64,000 nucleotides of DNA from an uncultured Candidatus Babeliaceae bacterium (GTDB lineage Bacteria > Babelota > Babeliae > Babelales > Babelaceae), in assembly GCA_963704655.1 (NCBI GenBank), contig OY969927.1, forward strand, positions 288,001 through 352,000, written 5' to 3'. Positions 38,901 through 64,000 of the stretch are shown in pieces. The notes under the pieces are model-generated. The model was given only the letters and a program-made list of their open reading frames with translations. It was not told the origin of the DNA and ran no database searches. Within the stretch, counting starts at the first letter, position 1; each line of letters begins with the position of its first letter. The translations under genes were made by a program, and so were the position numbers.

Positions 38901-41244
38901 TATCATTTTGAAGCGCGCTATTACCAATAGCAATGTCGGTAGTTGGATTTTGTGTCAAGTTTAATGCAGAATACCCAAGTGCGATATTGCCATTACCATG
39001 TAAATTTGCCGCCATTGCATTGTTGCCGATTGCAGTGTTATTTTCACCTGTGGAATTATTTGTTAAAGCAAAACTGCCCACAGCGGTGTTGATGAAAGGG
39101 CTAAATCCACCGTGGCCACCGATTATACCCGCTTGAGTATTTGCAAGTGTTTGATACCCAACAGCAACATTAAATACAAGTGGCCCATATACACCACCTG
39201 CTGCTATATCAACGGCATTGCTGAGTGCGCCGCTGCCAAGAGCAACATTGCCAAAGCCGTGCGTTGTTGTTGCAAGTGCGTTTACGCCGATGGCAACGTT
39301 TTCTGCGCCACCGATGGCTGTTATTTGGTTGTCTAAATAATTATAATAGGTAAATTGTGCGCCGCCTTGCAGTGTCTGTGCACTGTTGGCACCAATTGCA
39401 ACGTTATCACATGCAACTGTTGCGGTCATGAGCGCATTAAAGCCAAGTGCAACATTGCTTGTGCCGGTAAGTGTATTATTATTGCCTGCATTAAGACCAA
39501 TAATGGTATTTTGATGTGTCGGTGCAAAGACGAATCCAGAACCAGTGTCGCATCCGCCAACAGAACTATAATTAATTAAGCTGTTACCAGTAAGAGTAAT
39601 AGTTGTTGCTGCAAAGCTGCCGGTGCTGTCACGCAAAACAAGTGTGAGTGCAGAATTACAACTTGTGCCAGTAGCAGTAGATGATGTCCCTACGCCAAGT
39701 TGCCCAAGTGAAGTTACTACAACAGGTGAACCGGTTACCGGTGTTCCATAAATACCAGCAACATATGCAGAAGTTTGTGTGCCTTGTGTGCCAATGCGAA
39801 TGGTATTTTGGTCACCAGGTGCGCCACCACTGCTTATTAAAATATTATTACTTTCATTAGAAGTATAAGGATAACCAGCATTTAAGCCCAATGCAATATT
39901 ATTAACACCTGTTAATACATTACCTAATGCAGAGTGACCAAGTGCAAGGTTTTGTCCACCAACATCTTTAGCAAGTGCGCCGTTACCCAGGGCTATATCA
40001 AAACCATTTGAAGGAGACGCAGATTGCATAGCTTCATAACCGATAGCGATGTTTGATCCCAAACCGTTATCATTTTGAAGCGCGCTATTACCAATAGCAA
40101 TGTCGGTAGTTGGATTTTGTGTCAAGTTTAATGCAGAATACCCAAGTGCGATATTGCCATTACCATGTAAATTTGCCGCCATTGCATTGTTGCCGATTGC
40201 AGTGTTATTTTCACCTGTGGAATTATTTGTTAAAGCAAAACTGCCCACAGCGGTGTTGATGAAAGGGCTAAATCCACCGTGGCCACCGATTATACCCGCT
40301 TGAGTATTTGCAAGTGTTTGATACCCAACAGCAACATTAAATACAAGTGGCCCATATACACCACCTGCTGCTATATCAACGGCATTGCTGAGTGCGCCGC
40401 TGCCAAGAGCAACATTGCCAAAGCCTTGCGTTGTTGTAGCAAGTGCGTTTATGCCGATGGCAACGTTTTCTGCGCCACCGATGGCTGTTATTTGGTTGTC
40501 TAAATAATTATAATAGGTAAATTGTGCGCCGCCTTGCAGTGTCTGTGCACTGTTGACACCAATTGCAACGTTATCACATGCAACTGTTGCGGTCATAAGC
40601 GCATTAAAGCCAAGTGCAACGTTGCTTGTGCCGGTAAGTGTATTATTATTGCCTGCATTAAGACCAATAATGGTATTTTGATGTGTTGGTGCAAAGACGA
40701 ATCCAGAACCAGTGTCGCATCCGCCAACAGAACTATAATTAATTAAGCTGTTACCAGTAAGAGTAATAGTTGTTGCTGCAAAGCTGCCGGTGCTATCGCG
40801 CAAAATGAGTGTGAGTGGCTTGTCGCATGATGTTGCAGTATATATAAAATTGAGTTGGTTAGAATTTGTCAGTGTTGTGAGCCAGGTTAAGGTGCCAGCA
40901 TTATCTGCTAATCCTAAAACTTGGCCCTGAAGCCCTTCTGCCGAGGGTAATACTAATTGATATGACGTTGTTGGTGTGCATGCACGTGTTGGGAGCATTT
41001 CTTCTGTGCTTAAATAGTAGCTTGGTGATTCGGATAAGCTGTTACCATTTTCGTCAAGAATATAGAGTGGTATATAGGTATCGGATAGAATCATATTTTT
41101 GTTATGCTCAAGATTTTTATTAATCGGTTCAAGTGCTTGAGCAAGAATGTGCAAATCATTAAAATTTGTTGACTCTGTTTGCAGTAAATTTGGAAAAAGC
41201 CCTATAGAAAGGGCATAGATTAAGTGATTGTACTTCATATACAT
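26905..41244 (-). CDS. Giant 4779-aa secreted mosaic fibre protein with C-terminal S74-like chaperone
   Basis: Uninterrupted 14.3-kb ORF; 12 RDxTGxFxA junctions; STRRVKKNI...LRPVTFNY...YGLIAEEVEEIYP C-terminus. Confidence 0.88.
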   Translation of the reverse strand: MYMKYNHLIYALSIGLFPNLLQTESTNFNDLHILAQALEPINKNLEHNKNMILSDTYIPLYILDENGNSLSESPSYYLSTEEMLPTRACTPTTSYQLVLPSAEGLQGQVLGLADNAGTLTWLTTLTNSNQLNFIYTATSCDKPLTLILRDSTGSFAATTITLTGNSLINYSSVGGCDTGSGFVFAPTHQNTIIGLNAGNNNTLTGTSNVALGFNALMTATVACDNVAIGVNSAQTLQGGAQFTYYNYLDNQITAIGGAENVAIGINALATTTQGFGNVALGSGALSNAVDIAAGGVYGPLVFNVAVGYQTLANTQAGIIGGHGGFSPFINTAVGSFALTNNSTGENNTAIGNNAMAANLHGNGNIALGYSALNLTQNPTTDIAIGNSALQNDNGLGSNIAIGYEAMQSASPSNGFDIALGNGALAKDVGGQNLALGHSALGNVLTGVNNIALGLNAGYPYTSNESNNILISSGGAPGDQNTIRIGTQGTQTSAYVAGIYGTPVTGSPVVVTSLGQLGVGTSSTATGTSCNSALTLVLRDSTGSFAATTITLTGNSLINYSSVGGCDTGSGFVFAPTHQNTIIGLNAGNNNTLTGTSNVALGFNALMTATVACDNVAIGANSAQTLQGGAQFTYYNYLDNQITAIGGAENVAIGVNALATTTHGFGNVALGSGALSNAVDIAAGGVYGPLVFNVAVGYQTLANTQAGIIGGHGGFSPFINTAVGSFALTNNSTGENNTAIGNNAMAANLHGNGNIALGYSALNLTQNPTTDIAIGNSALQNDNGLGSNIAIGYEAMQSASPSNGFDIALGNGALAKDVGGQNLALGHSALGNVLTGVNNIALGLNAGYPYTSNESNNILISSGGAPGDQNTIRIGTQGTQTSAYVAGIYGTPVTGSPVVVTSLGQLGVGTITTTSFTGQLYGDVIGTQTATHVAFVCGIPACALAQTYSTVLSATSADIPLTLVLRDSTGSFAATTVTVTTVAFEAKDNSGTVSITGPATVSTSYGVTLPQAQGNSSQTLINDGFGNLSWQTVVIGSAIESLNSVTVVNQFLTTYTAETFFGWTDNAVTGVHQLDIPYAGNLPDDNNHVGLITGEDYQNFEFAYNGVYNATPLDIQGTIVERDSTGSFAATNITVTGYQVFEGSTGAGSVSLTAGNLTNTYTLILPAAQATGPNQALFNNGSGQLSWVATLTGGIESLNGLTAPEQFLTTNTGNLTLVVWNDIEPGTHELNIPYAGNLIGTTSVGLISGIDYQNFEFAYNGVYNATPLDIQGTIVERDSTGSFAATNITVTGYQVFQGSTGAGSVSLTAGNLTNTYTLILPAAQATGPNQALFNNGSGQLSWVATLTGGIESLNGLTAPEQFLTTNTGNLTLVVWNDIEPGTHELNIPYAGNLIGTTSVGLISGIDYQNFEFAYNGVYNATPLDIQGTIVERDSTGSFAATNITVTGYQVFQGSTGAGSVSLTAGNLTNTYTLILPTNAAPGLYQVLGVVSGPGKTEQLGWITTVTNSTELNWIYTATSADIPNTLVLRDNTGSFAAYNITADGCLTVNDPTLSPAGQICGSISALTVAPQGSRALQASASGNTRGTYAVDLQINASGSDVASGSYAVIAGGQSNTASNSYAAILGGQNNTASNSYGIVVGGSYNNSTGNSSFVGNGEHHTASGDYSSVTGGYENTASGNYAVVGGGQYNHASNTNAAILGGQSNTASNTYGVVVGGFGNNAAGNSSFIGGGIGNSNTTGDQAVIVGGEGNSASNTFATVVGGSANTASNTYGIVVGGFNNKAAGNSSFIGGGQNHNATDDYATVVGGYQNKASNYYAVVGGGNYNTASGNSSFVGAGYTNTANSDYSVITGGYYNNASNYYAVVGGGTYNTASGNSSFVGAGYTNTANSDYSVVVGGQNNTLGSSLGNWSIIGGGLSNNLNGYYAVITGGYNNSTSSSYATVGGGQNNSAGYAGTVGGGNGNAAGGQYATVPGGYNNQANGEYSVALGQQANAANNGAFVFADSQGSSFASTSNDTFNIRAQSGLVFQGNSTGNITFTVPSSFSSSYGLILPTSHGANGQVLSTNGGAPAQLSWITTVTNSAQLNLLNTATSCDNASTLVLRDSTGSFAATTITLTGNSLINYSTVGGCNTGAGFVFAPTKGNTIIGLNAGNNNINITGTGNLALGFNALALNTSGSNNTALGFGTLATNVNKSNNVAIGTQAMASANPLSGNSVAIGYQALAHDSFGYNVAVGSQALSANLSPYNAAVGTFALQANTTGNFNTALGFNALTTNTTGVQNTGIGASALNNNIGGSYNTAVGTNALLDLTTGQYNTAVGVNAIELITSGNSNVALGYAAGQNAGSNTSNSIYISNLGNSTDNNVTYIGTQGTQTAAYVAGIYNTLLVGEPVVVTSSGRLGVGTYSDLINTATSCDNILSLVLRDSTGSFAATTITLTGNSLINYSTIGGCNTGQGFVFAPTNQNTLIGLNAGNNNILTGTSNVALGFDALASITAGFDNIAIGAFAGQSLIGGEGENNSYIFNGAADNIAIGTGALASTQQGFSNVAIGTSALMTGTDLVVNGGIFAGTYPMQYNVAIGYQASMNAIAYQFFGDSIFDPRPEPIINTAIGSFALTNNISGNYNTAVGNNALSANVIGSYNTAEGYSALSANVLGGSNTAVGYSALLTVTSGSNNTALGTGADVGEPAQNRTAIGAGAAAFVDNSVMLGNSSVRYIMPSGTINSTNLGYAPNNLFNNVLAKQFNIYDSGNTNYAGITAPSATYAFTYTLQMPINQGAFGQLLTTDGNNPAQLSWSTLPTYTLLTAATACDTPSTLVLRDNTGTFEATTVALSGKSLINYSSLGGCNTGQGFIFAPTHNNTIIGLNAGNNNTLTGSGNIAIGQNALQLIATGTSNIAIGYNALQLNSSGHDNIGIGLNALQNNTGPYQIALGTNALQNNTGTNNFAAGYYALANNTAGQFNTAIGDYSLQNNTVGSSNIGIGISTLANSNSGDNIAIGIYSLTNNTQGQQQVAIGSRALQSNITGTSNVGIGYYSLYYNNSGYANTALGYYAGLNCLTGSNNIYLGANVVGSAGDNNLIKIGNGQTQTYVAGIYNNLQVGEPVVITSNGQLGVGSYSNLINTATSCDNALALVLRDSTGSFAATTITLTGNSLINYSSVGGCDTGAGFVWAPTKQNTLIGLGAGNSNNLTGTSNVALGYQALANNITGYNNTALGFGTLATNTNKSNNVAIGTNAMASANPYFGNSVAIGYQALAHDSSGYNVAVGSQALSANTTGYDNTAVGTFALQDNNSGLGNSAFGAFALSANTSGGSNTAIGTLALNANMIGNYNTAVGSQAMYATTAGYYNTALGINAMNSAQASHDVAIGYNSLGLDSAGFNVAVGEATLSNIITGTYNVALGYEAGVNAGTSTSNSIYIANQGNSTDSNVTYIGTQGTQTAAYVAGIYNNLQVGEPVVVTSSGQLGIGSYSNLINTATSCDTALTLILRDSTGSFEATTVTLTGNSLINYSSVGGCNIGQGFVFAPTYGNTIIGLNAGNNNTLTGTLNVALGNQALNANTTGKNNTAVGYQAAKSNMTSSDNVALGNNALATFNGAIGQNVAIGSGAMQNATPLNAAASDIAIGYSALQKDNGQGANIAIGSLAMQNATPINGQDIAIGALTLPSDTIGFNIAIGFSSMTNNTTGVNNVAMGISSLGTNTSGSYNVALGTSALFGNGASAAKNVSNNVGVGYQSLYSNRANNLTAVGYYALGSNTTGIQNTALGYNALGSNTTGTSNVALGYQALANAAGINNFDNIAIGANTLSGASILGDNIAVGTNALSASGYTGGQQIAIGTGALQANTTGTGNIAIGYDALQTNTSGVNNIAIGAYALSKLNYNLPFLGIPSGANNIAIGSNALSNIIQAGENVAIGSNTLQNGSFSYGNVAIGYNAFVFGNSAFNVAVGNSSMGSNNTGASNTAVGYYSLSGNTTGNSNTAIGSYSLSGNIIGFNNTAVGYNALLTASVGNALTAVGSGALQYNTLGTQNVGVGYSTLQSNTSGSNNTAVGFNALSLSQFSNNNTAIGNLTLNNAAVGSDNTAVGNQALSTNQTSSLVGIGSGALFNNTTGAQNVAVGYYALNANITGFNNTALGYQALANANTANNFDNIAIGANTLSGASILGDNIAIGYNALSSANYTKGQQTAIGTGVLQFNTTGTANVGIGYQVLDANTIGSNNVALGNEALTINISGNDNTAIGTNALANSTASRLTAVGSGALANATTGIQNTAVGFNALNLNTTGTSNIAIGYQALANARTINNFDNIAIGAFTLTGTAVLGDNIAIGYNALSSANYNKGQQIAIGTGALQNNTSGVQNHAEGYYALNANTTGTSNVAIGYQALANAKTINNFDNIAIGAFALSGASILGDNIAIGYNALSSANYTGGQQTGIGTGVLQFNTTGTANVGIGYQVLDANTIGSNNVALGNEALTINISGNDNTAIGTNALANSTASQLTAVGSGALANATTGIQNTAVGYYALNANTTGTSNVAIGHQTLAANTASVNNVAVGCYALTKLSGTITYGGNNTAIGADALAALTTGTNNVAIGYNAGTNLLTGTGNIYIGANVYAGAITTSTAESDTIRIGALYGAGSGACYIQGIFGQTYTTGGAAVSIGSNGKLGTTASTRRVKKNIQDMDNITEDLHKLRPVTFNYIWDGYEDHLEYGLIAEEVEEIYPGIVIKDAYGQPQTVQYQYIPLMMLNELQKDRAMLLDYRKRLETLEICYKETIATMQEQIADLQTKIEKLVA
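36820..37960 (-). repeat. Tandem repeat, 465-bp period (about 2.5 copies)
   Basis: CGCGTTCTAC at 36951, 37416 and 37881. Confidence 0.9.
38518..40817 (-). repeat. Near-perfect tandem duplication, 1167-bp period
   Basis: Identical shadow ORFs at 38933/40100; matching TGTCCC(C/T)ACGCCAAGTTG at 38518/39685. Confidence 0.95.
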
Positions 41245-52670: not shown

Positions 52671-55400
52671 ATGAGTAATAGATTATTTATTTTTGCAGTA
52701 TTTTTGATCAGTTTATTTGTTCCGATATATGCGGAAATAACAAGTGTAGATGAAGCGCTTAAGGTTGTGGGTTTTCTTGATGCGCTTGAAGAAAATTATA
52801 AAGATGCATTTAAAGAAAAAAATATACGCTATGCATTGGAAGATTTATTAGCTTTTTATGAAAATTCAAATGAATTTACTCCAGAACAACGTGCAGGACT
52901 ATTTAATAAATTATATCGCTATTTCCAGCTGGTTGAAAAATTTGATGCTGAAAATGGCTCTGCAACAAAGTTTTTAAATTCAGATCAAAGTTTAGTAACC
53001 TACTGGACACAAATGGTAGCTGCTACTCATACTATACTTGATACGAATAATAGTTCTACGAGTAATGCATTAAATTTAATTGCGCCAATTTCTGGTGGAT
53101 TTAACTACACCTATACGTTGCAAATGCCGGTTAACCAGGGATCTTTTGGACAAGTTTTGTCAACTGATGGTAACAACCCTGCGCAACTTTCTTGGCTTAC
53201 TACTATAACTGCAGATGTAAGTCTTATTTACTCTGCAACAAGTTGTGATAATGTAAATACCATAGTATTACGTGATAATAATGGCAGTTTTGTAGCAACA
53301 AATATCGCGCTGATGGGCAATACAAATAACAGCTTAATAAATTATAGTACAACTTCATGTGGTCCGGGTACGTCGATGTTGAGTATTCCTGGAACACAAA
53401 ATATATTCTTAGGCACATCCGTTGGCAATTCAGCTGTATCGGGCCCAGGTAACGTAGCAGTTGGTAATACAACACTCAATGCTATAACTTCAGGCTCTGG
53501 TAACACTGCTATTGGTGTTAATGCATTAGCTGCAGTAGTGACAGGCTCTAATAATACTGCAGTTGGTTATGGCGCTAACGTAACTGGCGCAAATGCTCTG
53601 AATCAGACAGCAGTTGGTGCCGGCGCAGTTGCACCATTTAATAACAGCGTGGTATTAGGTAACGCTGCTGTAACCAATGTGGTCCCTATGGCAAGCGGTG
53701 TTACAAGTCTTGGTGGTGCAAGTAATATTTGGTCAACCCTCAATACCTATTCAACTAATTACTATGATAGATCAGGTGATGTAGTTACTATTGCAGCAAC
53801 GCCAGGTGGAACAGGAACTTATACAATGTATTGGCCAACTTCTGTAGGTCAAGCAGGGTATGTGCTTGAAGCAACCACCAGTAGTAGTCCGCAACAGCTT
53901 AATTGGATTCCTATTACCGCATTGCTGAGCGGTACCTATTGTGATTTCCCAAGCACCTACGTGCAGCGCGATCCAAATGGTAAATTTGCAGCAACAACGA
54001 TTACGTTAACGGGTGTATCGTTACTTAACTACAGCACTCTTGGTGGTTGTGACCTCGGTAACCCATTCTTGAGCGTTCCAGGAACAAACAACTTGTTCTT
54101 AGGCACTTCTGCTGGTAAACAAACAGTATCAGGCAGTGCCAACGTTGCTGTGGGTAACCAAGCATTAACAAGCATTAGTACTGGTACGTCTAATACTGCA
54201 ATTGGTTATAATGCTCTTGCTGCAGCAGCTGCCGGCTATAATAATGCTGCATTGGGTTATTATGCATTAGCTATTGCTACCGGAAATAATAACGTTGCAG
54301 TAGGTTATAATGCCGGTTCAGCAAGTACCGGATCTAATAATATCTATGTTGGTACAGGAGTAACCGGAAATTCTGGTGATGCCAGTGTTATCAGTATCGG
54401 TATTCAAAATGCTGGAACAAGTGGCACCTATATGGGTGGTATTTATAATACTACGCCTACAGGATTAAACTCTCTTGTAGGTATTACCAGCAGTGGTCAA
54501 CTTGGTGTTGCAACGTCAGCAACTATTACCACACTTACGGTATCAGGAAGTCTTACTGTTGATAATCTTAATGGTGCAGTTATTGCAACTAACGGGTTAT
54601 TAACAGCGACTATTGGTATTGACGGCACACGCCTTGCATCATTTATATTAACCGATACACCTGCAGTAAGCTTCTTCCAACCGGTTGAGCCATCACGTGA
54701 ATCATACTTCTTTGATGACTTTATGGCATTTAATTCTACTGCTGGCGACTTGTTCTATGGTGATACACAATGGGTAATTGGTAATAATACTGCCGGACGT
54801 GTTACGGCAATTGCACCGCTTGCATCTAATGGCGCAATTGGTGTGACTCGTTTAACATCTGGCGCTGCTGTAAATAACAGTAATTATATTACCAAACAGC
54901 TTACGGGCACAACGTCATTAAGCTTGTCGCTAGGATATGGCCCATGCTTGAATGAATGGCGTGTTTCTGTTCCAGCAACTTCAAGCGGAACAAATAGTTT
55001 CTATACTCGTGTTGGCTTTGGAGATAGTCCTGCTGCTACAGCAGTAAACCCAACAGGTGCGCCAAGTAATGGTATTTACTTCCAATGCCTTGATAGCATC
55101 AACAGTGGTTCATGGACGGTTAATACCGCAAGTAATGGAAGCAGAACATCGGCAAATACAGCAGTTGCTCCTACTCCAGGCGTATTCCAACGATTGAGTT
55201 TTCAAGTTAATGGAAATGCATCAAGTGTTACGTTCTACATAAATGATGTTTCGGTAGGAACTATTACGACAACGATACCAACAATAGCCAATGGTAACTA
55301 TTGTTCACCATATGCGTCTGTGGTGCGAAATGCTGGTACTGGAGGATCTCTTGATCTTGATTATTGGTATTTCCATTATACCTTTAATTCACGACGTTAA
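52671..55400 (+). CDS. Secreted 909-aa fibre-family protein with lectin/ConA-like C-terminal domain
   Basis: Signal peptide, helical N-domain, head-like repeats, C-terminal domain paralogous to the previous gene. Confidence 0.8.
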   Translation: MSNRLFIFAVFLISLFVPIYAEITSVDEALKVVGFLDALEENYKDAFKEKNIRYALEDLLAFYENSNEFTPEQRAGLFNKLYRYFQLVEKFDAENGSATKFLNSDQSLVTYWTQMVAATHTILDTNNSSTSNALNLIAPISGGFNYTYTLQMPVNQGSFGQVLSTDGNNPAQLSWLTTITADVSLIYSATSCDNVNTIVLRDNNGSFVATNIALMGNTNNSLINYSTTSCGPGTSMLSIPGTQNIFLGTSVGNSAVSGPGNVAVGNTTLNAITSGSGNTAIGVNALAAVVTGSNNTAVGYGANVTGANALNQTAVGAGAVAPFNNSVVLGNAAVTNVVPMASGVTSLGGASNIWSTLNTYSTNYYDRSGDVVTIAATPGGTGTYTMYWPTSVGQAGYVLEATTSSSPQQLNWIPITALLSGTYCDFPSTYVQRDPNGKFAATTITLTGVSLLNYSTLGGCDLGNPFLSVPGTNNLFLGTSAGKQTVSGSANVAVGNQALTSISTGTSNTAIGYNALAAAAAGYNNAALGYYALAIATGNNNVAVGYNAGSASTGSNNIYVGTGVTGNSGDASVISIGIQNAGTSGTYMGGIYNTTPTGLNSLVGITSSGQLGVATSATITTLTVSGSLTVDNLNGAVIATNGLLTATIGIDGTRLASFILTDTPAVSFFQPVEPSRESYFFDDFMAFNSTAGDLFYGDTQWVIGNNTAGRVTAIAPLASNGAIGVTRLTSGAAVNNSNYITKQLTGTTSLSLSLGYGPCLNEWRVSVPATSSGTNSFYTRVGFGDSPAATAVNPTGAPSNGIYFQCLDSINSGSWTVNTASNGSRTSANTAVAPTPGVFQRLSFQVNGNASSVTFYINDVSVGTITTTIPTIANGNYCSPYASVVRNAGTGGSLDLDYWYFHYTFNSRR

Positions 55401-55427: not shown

Positions 55428-58400
55428 ATGAAAATAAACATACTAGTTTTCACATTAACGTTAGTAACATTTTTGCCATTTTATGCTGCCATAAACAGTT
55501 TAAAAGAAGCACGAATTGTTTCGCGGTATCTTGGTGTTATTAAACAACATGACACTATCCTTTTTTCAGACCCTTTGGTGATTCAGACGGTAAACGATCT
55601 TATTGATTTTTGTGAAAATAATAATCAATTAAGTGAACAAGAAAAATTGGAGTTTGTAACGAAATTAGAAGAGTTTATTTTGTTGGTCCCCGCTGATAGC
55701 AGTGGGGATCAACAGATCGGAGATCAATTGGTGGGGAAAGCAAACCCGCTGTCTGTTAATGGGCAGACATTGGTTGCTTATTGGAGTCAAATTTTTAGCT
55801 CGACAGAATTTTTATTTGATAGCACAGGGAACAACACCGTAGCATTATCTGCTCCATTGGTGTTAAATGATAGTTATACTTTACAATTTCCTGTATCAGA
55901 AGGTTCTGCTTATCAAGTGCTGGGAACATTGGGTGGCAATCCCGCACAACTTGCTTGGCTTACTACTGTTACTAATACGAGTCAATTAAATTTACTGAAT
56001 ACCGCAACAAATTGTGATGTTGCAAATACATTAGTATTGCGTGATACAACTGGCAGCTTTGCAGCAACAACAATCACGTTAACCGGCAATAGTTTAATTA
56101 ATTTCAGTACTGTTGGTGGCTGCGATATCGGACAAGGCTTTGTCTTTGCGCCAACACATCAAAATACCATTATCGGCCTAAATGCAGGAAATAATAACAC
56201 CCTTACCGGCACAAGTAATGTTGCATTAGGTTATAATGCGCTAGCAGCGAACATTATTGGACATGACAATATCGCATTAGGTACCAATGCGCTTGCAAAT
56301 AACACCACCAACCTATCTACTGCTGTAGGCTCAGGAACTTTACAAAGTAATGTTTCTGGTAGCCAAAATACTGCTGTTGGATATTATGCATTGAATAAAG
56401 TTGTTGCCAATGGTAACAATACCGCAGTTGGATATTACGCCCTTTTGAATAATACTAATAACCAGCTTACCGCTGTTGGTGCTGGTGCATTACAAACGAA
56501 TGTCAACGGCTCAGCAAATGTTGCAGTTGGCTATAACGCATTGAATCAAAATAACGGAGCAAACAATACGGGTCTTGGTTTTCAGGCAGCGCAGGGAACA
56601 ACTGCTGCAGGTAATATTGTTGCAGTAGGTGCAAATGCTTTTGCAGCAGGCGTTGCTACTGGTGCACAAACGGTTGCAGTTGGCTCAGCTGCGATGCAGA
56701 ATGCAAAACCAGCTTTGGGTGCAGATATTGCCATAGGTTATCAAGCATTGCAGAATGATAATCAAGGGCTCAATGTTGCAGTTGGTACATCGAGCATGAC
56801 CACTAATAATACCGGCGCTTATAACACTGCTGTTGGAATATCAACATTGCAAAACAATGGTAGTGGGATTCAAAATACTGCTATCGGATATTATGCACTT
56901 CAAGCAAATACAACGGGAACATCAAACATTGCATTAGGCTACCAAGCACTTGCAAATGCAAACACCATAAATAACTTTGATAATATTGCAATTGGAGCAT
57001 TTACGCTTACTGGAACTGCGGTATTGGGTGATAATATTGCGGTGGGGGTCAATGCGCTTTCTGCGCCTGGCTATAACCAAGGTCAGCAGATAGCAATTGG
57101 AACAAATGCATTACAACTTAATACAACTGGAACGGCAAATATTGCAATCGGTTACGAAGTGCTTGATGCAAACACGGCTGGTTCATCAAACGTTGGGCTT
57201 GGGTATCAAGCTTTAGGTACTAATGTTAGTGGTAATGATAATACAGCTGTTGGAACATTAGCTCTTTTCAATAACACAACAAATCAGATCACCGCGGTTG
57301 GTTCTGGTGCACTACAAAATAATACTACTGGTATTCAAAATACTGCAATTGGTTATAAAGCGCTTAATGCTAATACCACAGGGACATCAAATGTTGCTAT
57401 CGGATATAAAGCGTTACAGACAAATACTATTGGTGATGATAATATTGCTATAGGTTATAACGCATTAAACACCTTCAATTCTGCTATTGGAAAAAATATA
57501 GCTATTGGTTCGCTAGCATTGCAAAGTTTAAATACTACCAATGCGCAGAGTGTTGCCATTGGTTATCAGTCAGGGCTAATTTCTACAGGTGCTAGCAATA
57601 CTATTGTTGGTTCAAATGCGGCGACTGGTTTAACAACAGGCGGAAGTAGTGTTGTTATTGGTGCAACTGCCGGCGCAGGCACAACAGTAAGTAATAACGT
57701 TGTTGTTGGCGCAGGCGCAGGAAACCAGACATTAACGGGTGCAACTAACGTTGTTGTAGGGCAGGGTTCCGGAACTGGATTAACTTCTGGCGCAAGTAAT
57801 ACCATTTTAGGACAAGCTGCCGGAACCGGTTTAACGTCAGGTGGAAGCAGTGTTGTTATAGGCGCAACTGCAGGTGCAGGTACAACAGTAAGTAATAACG
57901 TTGTTGTTGGCGCAGGCGCAGGAAACCAGACATTAACGGGTGCAACTAACGTTGTTGTAGGGCAGGGTTCCGGAACTGGATTAACTTCTGGCGCAAGTAA
58001 TACCATTTTAGGACAAGCTGCCGGAACCGGTTTAACGTCAGGTGGAAGCAGTGTTGTTATAGGCGCAACTGCAGGTGCAGGTACAACAGTAAGTAATAAC
58101 GTGGTTGTTGGTGCTGGTGCGGGAAACCAGACATTAACCGGCGCTAGCAATGTTATTGTTGGTCAGGGAACAGCTACGGGATTAACTTCAGGTGGAAGCA
58201 ATATTATTATTGGTCAAGGAAACACGGGCGGTACATTAACTACAGGAGCTAATAATATTATTATTAGTACCGGCAATAATGCTACGTACCCAATCGCTAA
58301 TGGTTCGAATGGTATCATTATAGGCTTTGGAACAACTTCTACAACAGCCTGTTGGATCGATGGGATTCTGCCTTTTGCCGCTGGCGCAAATACTGTACGT

Positions 58401-61037
58401 ATAACTGCTGCTGGCAGATTGGGTACAGCTGCTTCGTCTGCACGTTATAAAACTAATATAAAACCGATGACAAGTGAGTCTTCAAATATATATCAGTTAA
58501 GTCCTGTTTCATTTACGTTTATTCCAAGTATTGATCCAACACAAACAACCTACTATGGTTTAATAGCCGAAAATACTGTTGGTCTTTACCCAAGTTTAGT
58601 TGTTACAGATACAGCAGGTCTTCCTTGGGCGATTAACTATGATTTATTGTCACCGATAGTTTTAAATGAAACACTTAAGCTTAACGCCTTTGTGCCGATA
58701 ACATTAAATTATACAAGTACGCAAAATACGGTTATTGGTAAAAATGCGTTGCAGGCAATTACTACTGGTTCGGGTAACACTGTTTTTGGTTATCAAGCGG
58801 GGAATTCGATCACAACAGGATACGGTAACACACTTCTTGGCATGGGTGCAGATGTAGCTTCTGGTAACCTGGTAAATGCGACAGCAATTGGTGCTGGTGC
58901 AAAGGCCACTAATAATAATACTATTGTCTTAGGAAATTCAAATGTTGTTGCTGTAGTACCCGGTTCAACTAATGCTACGCTTGGTGCGCCTGGGCAGATG
59001 TGGTCATCTATTATGACAACACAATTGACTTCTGCTGGCAGTTTAACATCGCCTACAATTACGTTAACAAGTAATCCATTAATGTATTATTATGATGGCA
59101 TAACCACGTGGACTATGTTGTCAGCGCCTGGAACACAAAATACTTTCTTAGGGCAAAGTGCGGGTAATTTATCGGTGACAGGAGCACGTAATGCTGCCTT
59201 TGGTTATCAGGCTGCAAAATCAAACATAACATCAAGTGATAATGTGGCTGTTGGGGTGAATGCATTGGCAACATATAATGGTGCAGGTGGTCAACATGTT
59301 GCAATAGGATCAGGTTCTATGCAAAATGCGACTCCTACCGGACAGTCTGATATTGCAATCGGATATAATACGTTGCAAAAAGATAATGGTCAAGGATCTA
59401 ATATTGCCATTGGTAACTCAGCAATGCAGAATGCTACGCCTATAAATGGTCAAGATATTGCAATTGGGTTACTTACATTACCAAGTGATACCATAGGATT
59501 TAATATCGCAATCGGTAACAGTAGTATGACTAATAATACAACTGGTGTTAATAACGTTGCTCTGGGAATTTCTTCATTACAAACTAATACTTCTGGATCG
59601 TATAACGTCGCTATCGGTAATAGCGCATTATTTGGAAACGCTGCCAATGCTGCAAAAAATGTAAGTAATAACGTTGCTGTTGGGTATCAAAGTTTGTATA
59701 ACAATCGCGCAAATAATTTAACGGCAATTGGTTATTATGCGCTTGGCTCAAATACAACCGGTATTCAAAATACGGCACTTGGTTATTACGCACTTGGCCT
59801 GAATACAACCGGCACATCAAATATCGCTATCGGTTATCAAGCTTTAGCAAATGCAAACACTATCAATAATTTTGATAATATCGCCATTGGTATAAATACG
59901 CTTTCTGGAGCAGGTGTCTTAGGTGATAATATCGCCATTGGTGCAAATGCGCTTTCTGCATCTGGGTATAGTCAAGGCCAGCAGATTGCTGTTGGCACAA
60001 ACGCATTGCAAGTTAATACAACAGGGACAGCAAATATAGCAATTGGTTATGGGGTGCTTGATGCAAACACGGTTGGGTCGTCGAACGTGGGGCTTGGGTA
60101 CCAAGCATTAACTACTAATGTTAGCGGTAATGACAATACTGCAGTTGGAACGAATGCTTTACAGTTTACGACAACATGGCGTTTAACTGCCGTTGGTTCT
60201 GGCGCATTACAATATAATACGACTGGTTTTCAAAATACCGCCGTTGGCTATCAGGCGCTTAATGCAAATACAACCGGCACATCGAATGTTGCTATTGGTT
60301 ACCAAGCTCTTTTAACAAATACAGGAAGCAGTAGCAATATCGCCATTGGTGCCAATACATTAACAAGATTTAGCAGTGCTTCTAATTTTGGTGGCAATAA
60401 TACAGCAGTGGGTATCAATGCGTTAGTTTCACTCATTACGGGAACTGGCAATACAGTTTTGGGCTACAACGCTGGATCAAACTTAACAACTGGTAGTGGA
60501 AATATTTATGTCGGTGCATTTGTTGCCGCAGCAACAACTAACGAGAGCAACACAATACGTATTGGAAGTGTTGGCGGTGCAGGAACAGCAGCTTGCTATA
60601 TTCAAGGAATTAATGGTAAAACAGTTCTTCCTGTAGCTGGTGCGGGCACTGTTAGTGTAAGTACGACTGGACAGCTTGGTACTACCGTTTCATCACGACG
60701 TTTTAAGAAAAATATTCAAGATATGGGTCTAATCACTGAAGATTTGTATAAATTACGTCCTGTAACATTTAATTATAAAGTTGATGAGGCTGAAGAGCAT
60801 TTAGAATATGGTCTAATCGCTGAGGAAGTTGATGAGGTTTATCCAGGGATTATTATTAGGGATGATTATGGAGCGCCATTTTCGGTTCAATACCAATTTC
60901 TTCCTATGATGATGCTTAATGAATTGCAAAAAGATCGTGCACGTATTGTGGTATTAGAAGATAAAATTGTAAGATTGGAACAACAGATTAGCAAGCTTTT
61001 GAATAATAGTGAACGACTTTCAGTAAAGGATGTGTGA
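55428..61037 (+). CDS. Secreted 1869-aa fibre protein with two S74-like chaperone domains
   Basis: SSARYKTNI at 58434 (internal) and SSRRFKKNI at 60690 (terminal). Confidence 0.85.
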   Translation: MKINILVFTLTLVTFLPFYAAINSLKEARIVSRYLGVIKQHDTILFSDPLVIQTVNDLIDFCENNNQLSEQEKLEFVTKLEEFILLVPADSSGDQQIGDQLVGKANPLSVNGQTLVAYWSQIFSSTEFLFDSTGNNTVALSAPLVLNDSYTLQFPVSEGSAYQVLGTLGGNPAQLAWLTTVTNTSQLNLLNTATNCDVANTLVLRDTTGSFAATTITLTGNSLINFSTVGGCDIGQGFVFAPTHQNTIIGLNAGNNNTLTGTSNVALGYNALAANIIGHDNIALGTNALANNTTNLSTAVGSGTLQSNVSGSQNTAVGYYALNKVVANGNNTAVGYYALLNNTNNQLTAVGAGALQTNVNGSANVAVGYNALNQNNGANNTGLGFQAAQGTTAAGNIVAVGANAFAAGVATGAQTVAVGSAAMQNAKPALGADIAIGYQALQNDNQGLNVAVGTSSMTTNNTGAYNTAVGISTLQNNGSGIQNTAIGYYALQANTTGTSNIALGYQALANANTINNFDNIAIGAFTLTGTAVLGDNIAVGVNALSAPGYNQGQQIAIGTNALQLNTTGTANIAIGYEVLDANTAGSSNVGLGYQALGTNVSGNDNTAVGTLALFNNTTNQITAVGSGALQNNTTGIQNTAIGYKALNANTTGTSNVAIGYKALQTNTIGDDNIAIGYNALNTFNSAIGKNIAIGSLALQSLNTTNAQSVAIGYQSGLISTGASNTIVGSNAATGLTTGGSSVVIGATAGAGTTVSNNVVVGAGAGNQTLTGATNVVVGQGSGTGLTSGASNTILGQAAGTGLTSGGSSVVIGATAGAGTTVSNNVVVGAGAGNQTLTGATNVVVGQGSGTGLTSGASNTILGQAAGTGLTSGGSSVVIGATAGAGTTVSNNVVVGAGAGNQTLTGASNVIVGQGTATGLTSGGSNIIIGQGNTGGTLTTGANNIIISTGNNATYPIANGSNGIIIGFGTTSTTACWIDGILPFAAGANTVRITAAGRLGTAASSARYKTNIKPMTSESSNIYQLSPVSFTFIPSIDPTQTTYYGLIAENTVGLYPSLVVTDTAGLPWAINYDLLSPIVLNETLKLNAFVPITLNYTSTQNTVIGKNALQAITTGSGNTVFGYQAGNSITTGYGNTLLGMGADVASGNLVNATAIGAGAKATNNNTIVLGNSNVVAVVPGSTNATLGAPGQMWSSIMTTQLTSAGSLTSPTITLTSNPLMYYYDGITTWTMLSAPGTQNTFLGQSAGNLSVTGARNAAFGYQAAKSNITSSDNVAVGVNALATYNGAGGQHVAIGSGSMQNATPTGQSDIAIGYNTLQKDNGQGSNIAIGNSAMQNATPINGQDIAIGLLTLPSDTIGFNIAIGNSSMTNNTTGVNNVALGISSLQTNTSGSYNVAIGNSALFGNAANAAKNVSNNVAVGYQSLYNNRANNLTAIGYYALGSNTTGIQNTALGYYALGLNTTGTSNIAIGYQALANANTINNFDNIAIGINTLSGAGVLGDNIAIGANALSASGYSQGQQIAVGTNALQVNTTGTANIAIGYGVLDANTVGSSNVGLGYQALTTNVSGNDNTAVGTNALQFTTTWRLTAVGSGALQYNTTGFQNTAVGYQALNANTTGTSNVAIGYQALLTNTGSSSNIAIGANTLTRFSSASNFGGNNTAVGINALVSLITGTGNTVLGYNAGSNLTTGSGNIYVGAFVAAATTNESNTIRIGSVGGAGTAACYIQGINGKTVLPVAGAGTVSVSTTGQLGTTVSSRRFKKNIQDMGLITEDLYKLRPVTFNYKVDEAEEHLEYGLIAEEVDEVYPGIIIRDDYGAPFSVQYQFLPMMMLNELQKDRARIVVLEDKIVRLEQQISKLLNNSERLSVKDV
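57620..58200 (+). repeat. Tandem repeat, 201-bp (67-aa) period, ~3 copies
   Basis: GGAAACCAGACATTAAC at 57720, 57921 and 58122. Confidence 0.9.
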
Positions 61038-64000
61038 TGAAAAGAAAGATGTTATTTTTTTATACTATATTTTTGACGTTAAGTGCCTTAACAACGCTTA
61101 ACGCAGTTCAAGATAAAGTTGTTTTGGTTGATAACAATACATTATCTCAGCTAGATATGCATAGATGGTATAATGAAAATATACATCAGCTAGAATCTGT
61201 TCCTGCACAAGCGTATGTTCATCATAAGATTTTTAAACTGACACATGATAAAGATTCTGAATACATTTTTATATACGGAAATAAAAAATTCGTGTCACGA
61301 CAAGAAGCACAATTAGATGCGGGTGATTGTTGTTTAGGGCAACTGCCTGGCGCAACGCTGATCGCAGATTTTCTTGTGCATAATCAAGATCTTTTTGTCC
61401 GTAATGCGCAAAAAGTTTCACACCGTGCCGGTCAATTTATTTGGGATCGACTTACTCCTGGATTACCTTTATTGTTAGATTCAAATTTAGATGTTGTTAC
61501 ACAAAACGTTGATATAGCAAGTCAAACAAGCGGTGCTGTGGCAATAGCATTAGGTGGCACCAATTCAACTTCGCCATTACAGAACAATTGTCTTATGGAA
61601 TCAGTTGGTGGACAAATAGTTGAAGCTCCGGCGTTACAAAATGGACAGATTTTTATTGGTGCAACAGGCATGTCGCCAAGTCCTGCAACTATTTCTGGAA
61701 CAGCTTCTCAAATTAATATAACAAATGGCCCTGGATCTATAACACTTTCAACACCACAAAATATCGATTTACTGTCAACGCCGACATTTGTGGGTATTCA
61801 GTTTCAACCTAGTGGTTCATCTAATTATGTTACTCTTCAGGCACCTGCAACAGTAAGTTCAACGTATTCAGTAAGCCTACCAGGCTCTGCGCCAACTGCA
61901 GGTCAAGTATTACAGGCAACATCTACATCAACAACTCAGTGGGGGAATGTGAGTGACGCGCTTACTTTATATGTTGCTGTCAATGGAAATGATAGCACGG
62001 GAAATGGCTCATTAACAGCACCTTTTGCAAGCTTAAAGCGGGCACTAGCCGTCGCTAATGCTATTGCATCAGAATATACACCAGTTAAAATCTCAGTGGG
62101 GCCTGGTATATTTGTGGAAGACACTTCTTCTGGCCCATTAATAATTAATCCTGTAAGTGGTAGTGGTTATATCAACATTGTGGGAACATCAAGTCAAACA
62201 ACTCTCTTTACTTCTTATACCCCAACACAAACGTTTATCTATATGCCAGCAAATGGCCGGCTTTCTGATTTGGCAATTTTTGGTATATATGAAGCGCCCG
62301 CAGTGTGCGCAGATGGCACTGGTAATAATTCTGCCTTTATTAACGCTGTTGCAGTTGGTTGCCAGCAGGGTTTTCTTTTTCAAGGTGGTATAACAACTAA
62401 CTACTATTTACAAGGAGTTGCTACCGAAAGTTGCGGTGTTGGTGTGCTAGTTGATGATGCTCGCGTGTTGATGTATAACTCAAGTTTTGATGGGGCACTT
62501 GAAACAACAATTATTCCTGCAAATACGGGGGTTATTGTAACAGGTCCGGCAGGGCGTATGGTTGCAGAGTCATGCGCATTTTTATATTGCGGCCTTTGTG
62601 GATTGGTAGAAAATCAAGGGAACGCTACATTTATAGGCGGCTCGTTTATTAGTTCAACAAGTGGTGTTCAGGCAGCAAGTCAGTCAACGTGTATTGTTAA
62701 TGGTTCAACATTTTATAGTAATACCGCAACGAATATGATCGCTCGAGATTTGGGGACAACTTTGCAGTCAACTGCATGTAATGTTGATGGTAATAGTTTA
62801 AATAATCTTCCGCAAGGAACGGGTCTTTTGGTTACCACCAGTGCTCAGGCTAATATTGCAGTTGCGTCGTTAACTAATTTAATAAATGGTATTATCATTG
62901 GTCAAGATGGTGATGATAGCACAACGCAGGTTCTTTCAGTTGGAGTAACTATCGATAATTGTGCAGGATCACAAATTATTCAAAATGGGCTTGCGCAATT
63001 AACGTATGTTGATGGTGCTCTTAATAGGAACTTTATAACTATTTCAAATCCTACAAATGTTACCTTTAATACCACGGATGCTTCAAGCGGGCAGGCAACG
63101 ATTATTGGTCAGCATAGTGATGTTGATCAAGATTTGATTCTTGTTGATACTGGGGTTGCGCAGATGCCAGGGTTAGTTTATCAATCAAATTATATGGATT
63201 GTAAGGGTATAATTTATCAAAATACTAATCCTGCTTTTTCAACCATGCTTGGGGTGCAGGGACAAAACTCTGGCGCAACACTTTCTGCAGTTACTGCTTC
63301 AAATGCACAACCTGCAAAAGTCATGTTATTTTCAAACTCCGGTGCTTTTGGCGGAATGAGTAATATGCGCGGTTGGTTGTTGAATAAAAACGCAACAAAC
63401 GCTCAATTGGCAGGTGAATTTTATAATAATGATCTTGATGGTAAACCTGCTATAGATCAATATACAAGTTTTCAATTTGACGGTTTTAATAATATTTTGC
63501 AATTCCCGGCAGTAACCACAACAAATTTACCAACCAATACCGTGGCACAATTACAATGGGCGGGAGATACGAATCTTTACCGTGCACAAGCAGGTGTGTT
63601 ACAGACAGATAATAACTTTGCCATTCAAGGTCTTGCCACCGCAAATAGTGCATTATATGTAGATGGTAATAAGCAGGTTGCTGCAAGTGTTACCTCTTCA
63701 AGTGATTTAGCACAACTTGCAGGAATAACCGGTGGTCCTATTCAGCCGCAACTTAATAATAAAGTTTCAAAGGCTGGCGATGTTATGACCGGCGTGTTAA
63801 CTATTCCAGATGGCACCGTTGCAAGACCGGCACTTAGTTTTAATGGTTTTCCTAATACTGGATTAGCGATTATAGGTAACGTTTTTACCTTAATGACTTC
63901 AGGCAGTTCACGCTTAACAGTAGATGCTAACGGTGTTGTGGGTATTAATAGCTCGAATGTTTCAACGGTGTTGAACGTAGGCGGTGATGTATCTGTAGTG
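61037..64000 (+). CDS. 3'-partial secreted tail-fibre/tailspike-like protein with beta-helix-like region (not in the ORF track)
   Basis: ATG overlaps the previous stop (TGATG); MKRKMLFFYTIFLTLSALTTLNA leader; LYVAVNGNDSTGNGSLTAPFASLKRAL; KVSKAGDVMTGVLTIPDG; frame runs to the window end. Confidence 0.85.
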   Translation, partial: MKRKMLFFYTIFLTLSALTTLNAVQDKVVLVDNNTLSQLDMHRWYNENIHQLESVPAQAYVHHKIFKLTHDKDSEYIFIYGNKKFVSRQEAQLDAGDCCLGQLPGATLIADFLVHNQDLFVRNAQKVSHRAGQFIWDRLTPGLPLLLDSNLDVVTQNVDIASQTSGAVAIALGGTNSTSPLQNNCLMESVGGQIVEAPALQNGQIFIGATGMSPSPATISGTASQINITNGPGSITLSTPQNIDLLSTPTFVGIQFQPSGSSNYVTLQAPATVSSTYSVSLPGSAPTAGQVLQATSTSTTQWGNVSDALTLYVAVNGNDSTGNGSLTAPFASLKRALAVANAIASEYTPVKISVGPGIFVEDTSSGPLIINPVSGSGYINIVGTSSQTTLFTSYTPTQTFIYMPANGRLSDLAIFGIYEAPAVCADGTGNNSAFINAVAVGCQQGFLFQGGITTNYYLQGVATESCGVGVLVDDARVLMYNSSFDGALETTIIPANTGVIVTGPAGRMVAESCAFLYCGLCGLVENQGNATFIGGSFISSTSGVQAASQSTCIVNGSTFYSNTATNMIARDLGTTLQSTACNVDGNSLNNLPQGTGLLVTTSAQANIAVASLTNLINGIIIGQDGDDSTTQVLSVGVTIDNCAGSQIIQNGLAQLTYVDGALNRNFITISNPTNVTFNTTDASSGQATIIGQHSDVDQDLILVDTGVAQMPGLVYQSNYMDCKGIIYQNTNPAFSTMLGVQGQNSGATLSAVTASNAQPAKVMLFSNSGAFGGMSNMRGWLLNKNATNAQLAGEFYNNDLDGKPAIDQYTSFQFDGFNNILQFPAVTTTNLPTNTVAQLQWAGDTNLYRAQAGVLQTDNNFAIQGLATANSALYVDGNKQVAASVTSSSDLAQLAGITGGPIQPQLNNKVSKAGDVMTGVLTIPDGTVARPALSFNGFPNTGLAIIGNVFTLMTSGSSRLTVDANGVVGINSSNVSTVLNVGGDVSVV

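Follow-up and report, generated by a model that had tools for sequence, protein, structure and literature searches.

Can an S74 domain serve as a built-in separator, such that one exported chain gives rise to several fibres, or to a fibre and a shed piece? The usual view of S74 domains is that they sit at the end of a chain, assist the folding of a trimeric fibre, and then cleave themselves off. A gene in the 64,000-nucleotide window (the whole stretch of DNA analyzed here), from the 1.3-Mb chromosome of an uncultured, protist-associated Babeliales/Dependentiae bacterium, has one such domain in mid-chain and a second at the C terminus. The cleavage pattern of its product determines what the cell surface displays, and a conserved mid-chain S74 domain without its trimerizing helix also raises the question of how far folding information travels along a trimeric β-helix.

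The gene is a single unbroken frame of 1,869 codons in a genome consisting of one contig without N, and an internal S74 domain is followed in frame by further fibre and a terminal S74 domain, as the initial annotation had it (Table 1). The 1869-aa product is, to judge from its sequence, a repeat fibre that bears two S74 domains and is predicted to be exported; each of the genome's nine S74 fibre proteins has the same type of signal-peptide-like start, as read by eye. Among PHROGs, the fibre repeats have phage tail-spike and virion matches (E values of 1e-106 to 1e-121), and the 201-bp repeat of fibre 1 encodes near-identical 67-aa units (DNA self-matches of 91% at a 201-bp offset). Pfam and NCBIfam gave zero matches in the N-terminal part of the protein, and NCBIfam contains no family covering its whole length. 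Stalk-end cassettes of the same kind lie 5' of both S74 domains (30 residues upstream were compared for all 12 S74 domains of the genome), and the cassette before the internal domain aligns with the end cassette of the gene's second half. Promoter-like sites within the gene (20 versus 19.9 expected by chance) and terminator-like sites (2 versus 5.1 expected) are at chance level, and neither suggests that the second half has a start of its own within the gene. Chromosomal neighbors are housekeeping genes, with SerRS, SecD, GidB, MreC, RecJ, and GatA among them. The 12 S74 domains are spread over nine fibre genes, two of which encode fibres of 4029 and 4779 aa, each with one, terminal, S74 domain in the genome-wide profile scan.

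Table 1. Features of the dual-S74 fibre gene (positions in the window)
Feature	Positions	Strand	Description and basis
Whole dual-S74 fibre gene	55428..61037	+	1869 aa plus stop; open frame, two PF13884 matches
Signal-peptide-like N terminus	55428..55490	+	~aa 1-21: Lys, hydrophobic run, end ..F-Y-A-A; by-eye reading
N-terminal region and fibre 1	55491..58304	+	Asn/Gly/Ala/Thr-rich repeats; composition and PHROG tail-spike-like matches
Tandem DNA repeat	57627..58138	+	201-bp unit, 2.5 copies, 95% matches
Stalk-end cassette preceding internal S74	58305..58433	+	..C-W-I-D-G-I.. R-L-G-T-A-A; alignment
Internal in-line S74	58434..58694	+	aa 1003-1089; PF13884 match, Ser1003 and Lys1008, AF2 model
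Junction, helix to fibre repeats	58689..58739	+	aa 1088-1104, F-V-P-I-T-L-N-Y-T-S-T-Q-N-T-V-I-G; alignment
Fibre 2	58740..60560	+	first ~70 aa and end homologous to B/C linker; middle is a paralogous fibre cassette
Stalk-end cassette preceding terminal S74	60561..60689	+	alignment
Terminal S74 core	60690..60950	+	aa 1755-1841; PF13884 match, Ser1755 and Lys1760
Terminal helix	60903..61034	+	~aa 1826-1869; heptad-like pattern; weak leucine-zipper-type Pfam hit

Both S74 domains claimed by the initial annotation are matched by Pfam model PF13884 (Peptidase_S74) above its curated cutoff of 22 bits: the internal one at aa 1003 to 1058 (33.7 bits; E value, 4.6e-8, from a 173-aa piece scanned alone) and the terminal one at aa 1755 to 1806 (48 bits; window position 60690 onward). 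The genome-wide PF13884 scan gave 35.8 and 49.5 bits, respectively. Each domain begins S-S-x-x-x-K, so that Ser1 and Lys6 are present with the claimed Lys(+5) spacing. These two positions and seven further columns are invariant over 16 aligned S74 domains, six of them internal, and the internal copy keeps all of them; Ser1 and Lys6 are also invariant in a 40-domain alignment. At 3 of 16 nearly invariant positions, the internal domain departs from the family (Tyr to Phe, Glu to Asn, and Val to Thr). A word-indexed homologue search with aa 960 to 1130 returned six weak hits (best, 6e-12), and phmmer found no match to the internal piece among PDB sequences, of which a profile of 16 S74 domains matched 8hqz (T5; E value, 7e-6).

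Structure prediction also agrees with an S74 fold for the internal segment. The AF2 model of aa 985 to 1110 reached a pLDDT of 86 with a 40-row alignment that itself contained S74 domains, and a single-sequence run of aa 974 to 1130 reached 29.7. Clear PDB matches of the model are limited to four S74/ICA entries, those of MyRF (7dc3; VIA Z, 8.7; root mean square deviation, 3.1; 113 aligned), endoNF (3gw6; 7.2), GA-1 (3gud; 6.6), and T5 (4uw8; 6.2), with the next row at 3.1; Foldseek matched 7dc3 with a probability of 1.00. A three-copy model of aa 974 to 1130 gave an ipSAE of 0.89, versus 0.00 for the best of three controls, a score that may reflect memorized solved S74 trimers and whose calibration comes from two-copy jobs (the mark was reached by 21 of 30 solved one-chain pairs and by 0 of 23 single chains). 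Runs share at least 90% of contacts, with a pLDDT of at least 83, and the contacts cover the stalk, the core, the short helix, and the downstream repeats.

The two domains differ in what follows the core. As the initial annotation had stated, no trailing coiled coil follows the internal copy: directly after the conserved L-N-E-x-x-K come Pro1090 and fibre repeats, leaving ~14 to 18 helical residues, whereas the terminal copy has ~40 heptad-like residues, with 28 aa from the domain end to the stop inside the heptad-like helix. By analogy with MyRF, this terminal helix is presumed to be a trimerizing coiled coil; the four-heptad C-terminal triple coiled coil (α4 in MyRF) is absent from the internal domain, which remains a PF13884 member because the Pfam model omits the coiled-coil helix. 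In the AF2 monomer, a single long helix passes through the junction with reduced confidence (74 to 83), probably driven by terminal-type rows of the alignment, and the local post-core structure is thus tentative. Downstream of the internal S74 domain are fibre repeats and no hydrophobic membrane-spanning helix of the MYRF type.

The in-line S74 domain and its junction also occur in paralogues B and C on the same chromosome and, outside this genome, in the metagenome protein P0011/P0158/P0159, on three contigs; B, C, and P0011 have the same type of junction sequence. In a tree, the four in-line domains of the 1869-aa gene, B, C, and P0011 form a separate clade (support, 96/94; branch, 0.71) that lies apart from all terminal S74 domains, and the terminal domain of the 1869-aa gene is sister to that of the 4779-aa gene (97/90). 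Ser and Lys are kept in all four in-line domains, which represent few independent lineages (B/C, the 1869-aa gene, and P0011). Between B and C, dN/dS is 0.175 for the in-line domain, 0.18 for the terminal core, and 0.30 for the fibre, values indicating that the internal S74 domain is under purifying selection. On the evidence of tree and alignments, the in-line domain is an old, conserved, and specialized lineage, not an accidental fusion scar. Five fragmented genomes of the same genus (G001 to G005) contain 22 S74 matches, 20 of which were readable (the partial matches L022 and L027 were left outside this classification) and all of terminal type, with a stop 94 to 128 aa past Ser; no in-line orthologue was seen among these 20, in assemblies from which long repeat genes may be missing.

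As one of two alternatives, the initial annotation had also suggested that the internal copy was left by gene fusion. This falls short for the S74 domain itself, and solely the long inter-domain stretch looks, from its matches, to have been imported from paralogous fibre genes. The best DNA match of fibre 2 is the 4779-aa gene (78.9% over 869 bp), the second half of the gene matches its own first half (77.5% over 550 bp), and each end of fibre 2 can be aligned with the linkers of B and C (40 to 44%). Because the other three carriers have only ~84 to 97 aa between their domains, paralogous fibre cassettes were probably inserted at a later time to give the long fibre 2: an ancestral module with ~85 to 100 aa between two S74 domains would have received a ~1.5-kb paralogous fibre cassette in the 1869-aa gene. 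The short inter-domain distance also argues against extending to B, C, and P0011 the annotation's proposal that one chain yields two fibres.

We favor, with a probability of roughly 0.5, a chromosomal, Sec-exported trimeric surface fibre with two-stage C-terminal maturation in which both Ser-Lys sites cut. The apparatus would consist of the in-line S74 domain (its own coiled coil lost), a trimeric fibre, and a canonical S74 domain with coiled coil (aa 1755 to 1869). The terminal coiled coil and S74 domain would set three chains in register, fibre 2 would fold toward the N terminus and clamp the three short helices of the in-line domain, and the latter would then trimerize and chaperone fibre 1 before cuts at both sites. 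Expected products are a cell-side fibre of ~aa 22 to 1002, a distal piece of aa 1003 to 1754 led by the in-line domain, and a freed chaperone of aa 1755 to 1869. What we infer from this architecture is the order of folding, the cut at Ser1003, and whatever role the distal piece may have, and the chances that the internal site cuts are about even. Of the coiled coil, the in-line domain retains no more than about two heptads, and its cleavage competence therefore depends on a putative rescue by the downstream trimer. A stricter scheme is a chaperone relay, in which the in-line domain trimerizes and cuts only after the terminal S74 domain and the intervening fibre have folded, so that maturation runs in a fixed C-to-N order and releases two different trimers, one a fibre that stays on the cell and the other a free fibre with an S74 domain as its cap; we put this forward tentatively and consider it rather unlikely.

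Two readings would deprive the internal domain of any such role, and both fare poorly. That a misassembly in a repeat-rich region joined two genes, or that a break is hidden there, is very improbable. The gene is indeed repeat rich, including the 201-bp tandem repeat, no contig from the public runs spans it whole, and one X2 contig links 60415 to 59826 with 40 other letters between. However, the frame is open over its entire length in the one-contig genome, and the stop or misassembly near 58690 that would have undone the original reading was looked for and none was found: runs of two studies yield exactly matching contigs that cross from the S74 domain into the fibre with no stop and no indel (X1, 58530-58734; X2, 58630-780 and 58754-904; 0 other letters in each), these contigs being short and of low depth, with gaps in gene cover, and one run possibly being the source sample. 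A like junction is present in two further genes of this genome and in three independent metagenome contigs. A decaying relic, in which paralogue recombination pasted a second cassette and S74 domain behind an older one and left one domain redundant and drifting, is also improbable. It would fit the block exchange among the genome's fibre genes noted above and the somewhat greater number of private changes in the in-line copy than in its sister P0011 (8 versus 3 in a relative-rate test; chi-square, 2.3, not significant), but not the equal purifying selection on both S74 domains in B versus C, the retention of every invariant family position, or a distinct clade of four proteins with a conserved junction, which is not what a recent copy of the terminal domain would give.

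More weight falls to an uncleaved in-line node, a possible but somewhat doubtful reading in which the internal S74 domain folds and trimerizes and does not cut, through coiled-coil loss or for other reasons; the mature fibre, ~aa 22 to 1754, would retain it as a knob or as a clamp that keeps the chains in register, and the terminal S74 domain alone would be removed. The truncated helix speaks for it, since MyRF needs its coiled coil for both steps: trimerization there is driven mainly by the C-terminal coiled coil of four heptads, and a single Leu/Ile mutation within this coiled coil is enough to block cleavage (Wu et al. 2021, PMC8326128). In the trimer model, the stalk passes without a break via S74 into the downstream repeats, which makes such a node geometrically plausible, and the three substitutions at nearly invariant positions also favor it. 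Furthermore, a cut at Ser1003 would separate 46% of the protein from its presumed cell-side anchor, a costly detachment for a 1.3-Mb genome that the uncleaved node avoids. Nevertheless, Ser1 and Lys6 are present in 4 of 4 members of the old clade and, across 24 multi-S74 proteins, in 26 of the 31 internal matches, and pure folding would not need the dyad; the in-line domain is as constrained as the terminal one. Ser-to-Ala endosialidase mutants reportedly still fold. The initial annotation's "uncleaved folding node" is also less needed than it seemed, as the same genome has much longer fibres, of 4029 and 4779 aa, that manage with one terminal S74 domain, and the fibre-length argument for a pure folding node therefore fails.

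Further dual-S74 proteins, whose existence had been left to a search, do occur: 19 multi-S74 chains were among the best 150 hits from 1.84 billion proteins. The S74 hits numbered 95,539 in all. Such chains are, by this sequence survey, rare and recurrent, with several independent origins. No literature on proteins with multiple or internal S74 domains was found, nor any on Dependentiae fibres among the papers listed. Six head-to-tail metagenome chains (P0008, P0009, P0010, P0013, P0015, and the G256 protein) resemble the 1869-aa protein in being nonphage fibres with dyad-bearing S74 domains, two or three per chain. They differ in that each internal S74 domain has 20 to 70 helical residues and is followed by a complete further unit that has an N-domain of its own. 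In addition, their internal domains cluster with their own terminal domains and thus point to recent within-gene duplications, whereas that of the 1869-aa gene has no coiled coil and belongs to an old lineage apart. Should the relay be true, these independent chains and the present gene would together establish S74 as a general self-cleaving separator by which one bacterial polyprotein gives several trimeric fibres and, as a tool, as a self-removing trimerization tag that could be placed between two modules.

Among known systems, the best structural match of the internal domain is the ICA domain of MYRF, which is reportedly also the subject of Li et al. 2013 and Senoo et al. 2013. Like the internal S74 domain, the ICA domain of MYRF/MrfA is not C terminal, and that of MYRF cuts at a Ser-Lys dyad once trimerized; cleavage takes place though more chain follows, according to the part of the MyRF report considered (Wu et al. 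2021, PMC8326128). In the same source, the MYRF chain goes on from its four-heptad coiled coil through a linker to a membrane helix, whereas the 1869-aa protein continues with a trimeric fibre and a second S74 domain; MYRF is eukaryotic with one ICA domain per chain, and the present protein is bacterial with two S74 domains. Phage chaperones of K1F endosialidase (3gw6), the GA-1 neck appendage (3gud), and T5 pb1 (4uw8 and 8hqz) belong to the same family by profile and fold and, like the internal domain, are located on the end of a triple β-helix stalk. Unlike it, they are single, terminal, and released after folding, and mature phage virions are described as lacking the S74 chaperone (RBPseg).

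The mosaic adhesive trimer (MAT) proteins of Bdellovibrio bacteriovorus provide the bacterial counterpart. S74 autocleavage has been shown for the fibre Bd3182 and is blocked by S782A, and the sections of that report drawn on here describe one terminal S74 domain in 13 of 21 MAT proteins and none in the others, together with a conserved β-rich domain of ~130 aa directly past the signal peptide (Caulton et al. 2024, PMC10769870). As far as those sections go, the MAT S74 subgroup and the 1869-aa fibre are alike in being chromosomal, in having a signal peptide (predicted here), in forming a multigene family in one genome, and in combining a long trimeric β-helical phage-related fibre with a self-cleaving S74 end and Ser-x4-Lys, the trimeric state, the β-helix, and self-cleavage being predicted for the present protein. 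They differ in the dyad motif (SDxxxK in MAT and SSxxxK here), in the host, which is a Dependentiae bacterium and not a predator of bacteria as Bdellovibrio is, and in the internal S74 domain, which those sections do not mention for MAT and which the 1869-aa protein has in addition to its terminal one. As part of the two-stage reading, and with the same roughly even odds, we place this fibre in one broad class with the MAT fibres, and by analogy with them the Dependentiae S74 fibre family, with nine genes in 1.3 Mb, is likely a host-attachment apparatus.

The product of the two-S74 gene begins with a Lys and a hydrophobic run resembling a Sec signal peptide (by eye from the sequence), and most of the chain consists of Asn/Gly/Ala/Thr-rich repeats that match PHROGs for phage tail-spike and virion proteins (E values of 1e-106 to 1e-121). 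Two segments score above the 22-bit cutoff of Peptidase_S74 (Pfam PF13884) and each starts with S-S-x-x-x-K, which confirms the coordinates and motifs proposed for both domains in the initial annotation. In the terminal domain, ~40 heptad-like residues extend past the conserved L-N-E-x-x-K to the stop. The same motif is conserved in the in-line domain, where it is followed by a Pro at amino acid 1090 and the immediate resumption of fibre repeats. A canonical stalk-end cassette lies upstream of the in-line domain, which carries three substitutions at nearly invariant positions and more private changes than its sister P0011 (8 versus 3, a nonsignificant difference). Leaving aside the absent trailing coiled coil and its non-terminal position, the internal segment qualifies as a Peptidase_S74 member in every testable respect.

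Locations of S74-bearing genes and domains
Feature	Location	Strand	Description
Two-S74 gene	55428..61037	+	single unbroken frame, 1869 codons
In-line S74	aa 1003-1058		PF13884, 33.7 bits (scanned alone), 35.8 bits (genome scan)
Terminal S74	aa 1755-1806		PF13884, 48 and 49.5 bits
4779-aa fibre gene	26905-41244	-	single S74, terminal
Paralogue B (same chromosome)	C1:261212-266191		1653 aa, internal and terminal S74
Paralogue C (same chromosome)	C1:266254-271182		1640 aa, internal and terminal S74
Locus L035 (genome G194)	G194:C1, 1080-7070		1996 aa, two S74
Locus L036 (genome G256)	G256:C5, 1819-5769		1316 aa, three S74

Profile and structural-model comparisons likewise identified the internal segment as an S74 fold, as the initial annotation had supposed. 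A profile built from 16 S74 domains of Dependentiae matched PDB entries of T5 pb1 (8hqz, E value of 7e-6), 6f45 (1.3e-3) and, weakly, MyRF (7dc3, 0.18). The AF2 model of residues 985 to 1110, built from a 40-row alignment, had a mean pLDDT of 86 (core, 91 to 97); Foldseek placed the MyRF ICA domain first (E value of 1.4e-3, probability of 1.00), followed by 3gud, 3gw6 and 4uw8, and VIA-align gave Z scores of 8.7 (7dc3), 7.2 (3gw6), 6.6 (3gud) and 6.2 (4uw8), with the next row at 3.1. Three copies of residues 974 to 1130 were modelled as a trimer with an ipSAE of 0.89 (best of three controls, 0.00), contact agreement between runs of ≥90% and pLDDT of ≥83, with contacts running from the stalk through the core and short helix into the repeats beyond. 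Calibration of this three-copy job was on two copies; 21 of the 30 solved one-chain pairs reached the mark, against none of 23 single chains, and familiarity with S74 trimers already solved may account for the pass.

The in-line domain is shared with tandem paralogues B and C, which are 72% identical overall. All three in-line domains have P-I/M-T in place of D-M-G, S/N/T-P-V in place of R-P-V and a shortened helix, and their genes share the junction Y-T-S-T-x-N-x-V-(I/V)-G and the first repeats after it. P0011, a metagenomic protein that clusters with P0158 and P0159 (three contigs in all), matches the junction nearly letter for letter. When 26 S74 domains were placed in a maximum-likelihood tree, the four in-line domains formed their own clade (96/94, branch of 0.71), apart from all terminal domains, even those of the same proteins, and Ser and Lys are retained in all four. 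Comparison of B with C gave a dN/dS of 0.175 for the in-line domain, 0.18 for the terminal core, 0.26 for the short linker and 0.30 for the main fibre. The separate clade, the retained dyad and the low dN/dS argue against a drifting scar, and sequence comparison therefore indicates that the in-line domain is an old, constrained and specialized form. Its recurrence in B, C and P0011 with the same junction, together with the clade and the dN/dS, also makes the earlier suggestion that it was left by gene fusion an oversimplification.

The host genome (G000) is a single 1.298-Mb contig without N. Short exact contigs from public sequencing runs X1 (58530-58734) and X2 (58630-58780 and 58754-58904) bridge the S74-to-fibre junction with no indels or other letters, showing there neither the stop nor the misassembly considered near 58690; the runs come from two different studies, one may be the source sample, and the contigs are low-depth unitigs, none covering the whole gene. 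Stronger evidence that the junction is real is that two further genes of the genome and three independent metagenome contigs have it as well. In one X2 contig, position 60415 leads back to 59826 across 40 other letters; a repeat-induced unitig, a paralogue or a strain variant is the probable cause, with no bearing on gene structure. The near-identical 67-aa fibre units just upstream of the in-line domain are encoded by a 201-bp tandem repeat (57627-58138, 2.5 copies, 95% matches), a place where length is likely to vary and assemblies are likely to collapse.

Neighbours of the two-S74 gene are housekeeping genes (SerRS, SecD, GidB, MreC, RecJ, GatA and others), which places the locus on a bacterial chromosome rather than in a phage. 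On the same strand, repeat fibre genes with signal peptides flank it at 52671-55400 (27-bp gap) and 61034-64000 (4-bp overlap, extending beyond the window); no S74 was matched in the portions seen, the downstream gene being incomplete in the window, and the three genes look like one operon of three fibres. Nine genes of G000 account for its 12 S74 matches; all of them have signal-peptide-like starts and seven lie between 261 and 349 kb. Of 261 genomes of the phylum, 70 have an S74 match. One of the nine (C1:152359-158460, outside the window) has a divergent S-D-K-x-x-K type, also found in same-genus genomes (loci L016, L026, L030, L032 and L033), a sequence pattern suggesting that the genus has two subfamilies of S74.

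The S74 domains of B, C and P0011 are only 84 to 97 aa apart. In B and C the segment from Ser to Ser is 183 aa long and matches both ends of the 752-aa segment of the two-S74 gene, at residues 1 to 159 (versus B) or 1 to 167 (versus C) with 40 to 41% identity and from about residue 641 to 656 to residue 750 with 42 to 44%. Given the tree ((B,C),(two-S74 gene,P0011)), parsimony makes the short S74-linker-S74 form the ancestor. The best matches to the additional DNA are the 3' part of the 4779-aa gene, the closest paralogue of the second half (78.9% over 869 bp; 68.8% over 1,159 bp with the terminal S74 included), and the first half of its own gene (77.5% over 550 bp), and in the tree the terminal S74 groups as sister to its counterpart in the 4779-aa gene (97/90). 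We infer that the middle of fibre 2, the stretch after the in-line domain, is paralogous cassette DNA inserted into an existing S74-linker-S74 module.

Searches for other dual-S74 proteins, as proposed in the initial annotation, recovered among others B, C, P0011 and proteins in G194 and G256. Among 1.84 billion representatives, a profile found 95,539 S74 proteins at an E value of ≤1e-3 (13,522 at ≤1e-10), and 19 of the best 150 of the 95,539 had two or three S74 stretches, a ranking biased toward multidomain proteins by summed scores. Among the matches listed, at least three genomes of the phylum have multi-S74 frames: G000 (three frames), G194 and G256. Ser1 and Lys6 are kept in 26 of 31 internal matches (24 multi-S74 proteins examined); two of the five misses reflect a truncated protein start and three genuinely lack the dyad. 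In one layout (P0008, P0009, P0010, P0013, P0015 and G256), S74 and 20 to 70 helical residues precede a whole new unit with its own N-domain; in the other (the two-S74 gene, B, C, P0011, G194, P0021/24 and P0017/19/62), S74 and a short helix lead directly back into fibre. None of the internal domains of G194, G256, P0009, P0015 and P0008 joined the in-line clade in the 26-domain tree. Those of the first four cluster with the terminal domain of their own protein, and the two of P0008 pair together, its terminal domain being of unsettled placement; multi-S74 architecture therefore arose several times independently.

Each of the three complete units of the G256 protein combines an N-domain and repeats with a dyad-bearing S74 and a short helix, and a signal-peptide-like start is present on the first alone. 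In the G194 protein, fibre repeats and a collagen-like G-x-T tract accompany two S74 domains of nearly identical sequence, of which the internal one is without a coiled coil; this is an independent recent instance of the in-line layout. P0009 (7,103 aa), the largest such chain seen, has three ~2,300-aa units; each is closed by a dyad-bearing S74, after which come ~40 helical residues and the N-terminal module again. In P0014 (880 aa, high-GC bacterial), a hydrophobic, membrane-helix-like stretch follows each of two S74 domains, an arrangement that reads from sequence like that of MYRF; it could be two genes read through.

S74/ICA domains form trimers, act as chaperones for the triple beta-helix before them and cut themselves at a Ser-Lys dyad. 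S74 autocleavage of a bacterial MAT fibre is blocked by S782A (PMC10769870), and the MyRF ICA cuts although more chain lies after it, its C-terminal four-heptad coiled coil being the main trimerization force, where single mutations abolish cleavage (PMC8326128). The in-line domain keeps about two heptads, and the best reading is a relay: the terminal S74 and coiled coil would put three chains in register; the fibre between the S74 domains would then fold, clamping the three short helices of the in-line domain, which could then trimerize, chaperone fibre 1 (the stretch before it) and cut. Cleavage at the Ser sites of both domains of the two-S74 protein has roughly even odds (about 0.5). It is favored by retention of the dyad in an old clade, by purifying selection equal to that on the terminal domain and by the canonical stalk-end cassette. 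Fibres of 4,029 and 4,779 aa in the same genome lack an internal S74, so fibre length does not explain the in-line domain, which also counts for cleavage.

That the in-line domain is instead an uncleaved node is possible but less probable. Against cleavage, it has about two heptads compared with four in MyRF and no coiled coil, this copy has the three substitutions and the nonsignificant private excess, and a cut would remove 46% of the chain. Readings as a relic, opposed by the clade and its constraint, or as an artefact, opposed by the recurrent junction, hold only small shares.

Multi-S74 chains recur across metagenomes, and MYRF is an already known case of an internal, cutting ICA. Where three papers discuss S74, they describe it solely as a C-terminal domain (PMC10769870, PMC12143355 and PMC12923769), and no description of an in-line S74 without a coiled coil between fibre stretches and paired with a terminal S74 was found in the literature covered. 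The two-S74 protein probably works like MAT-type bacterial fibres and belongs with them. Set against these systems, its distinguishing feature is an in-line S74 that lacks a coiled coil, lies amid fibre and is accompanied by a terminal S74, a layout that is real, conserved and testable.
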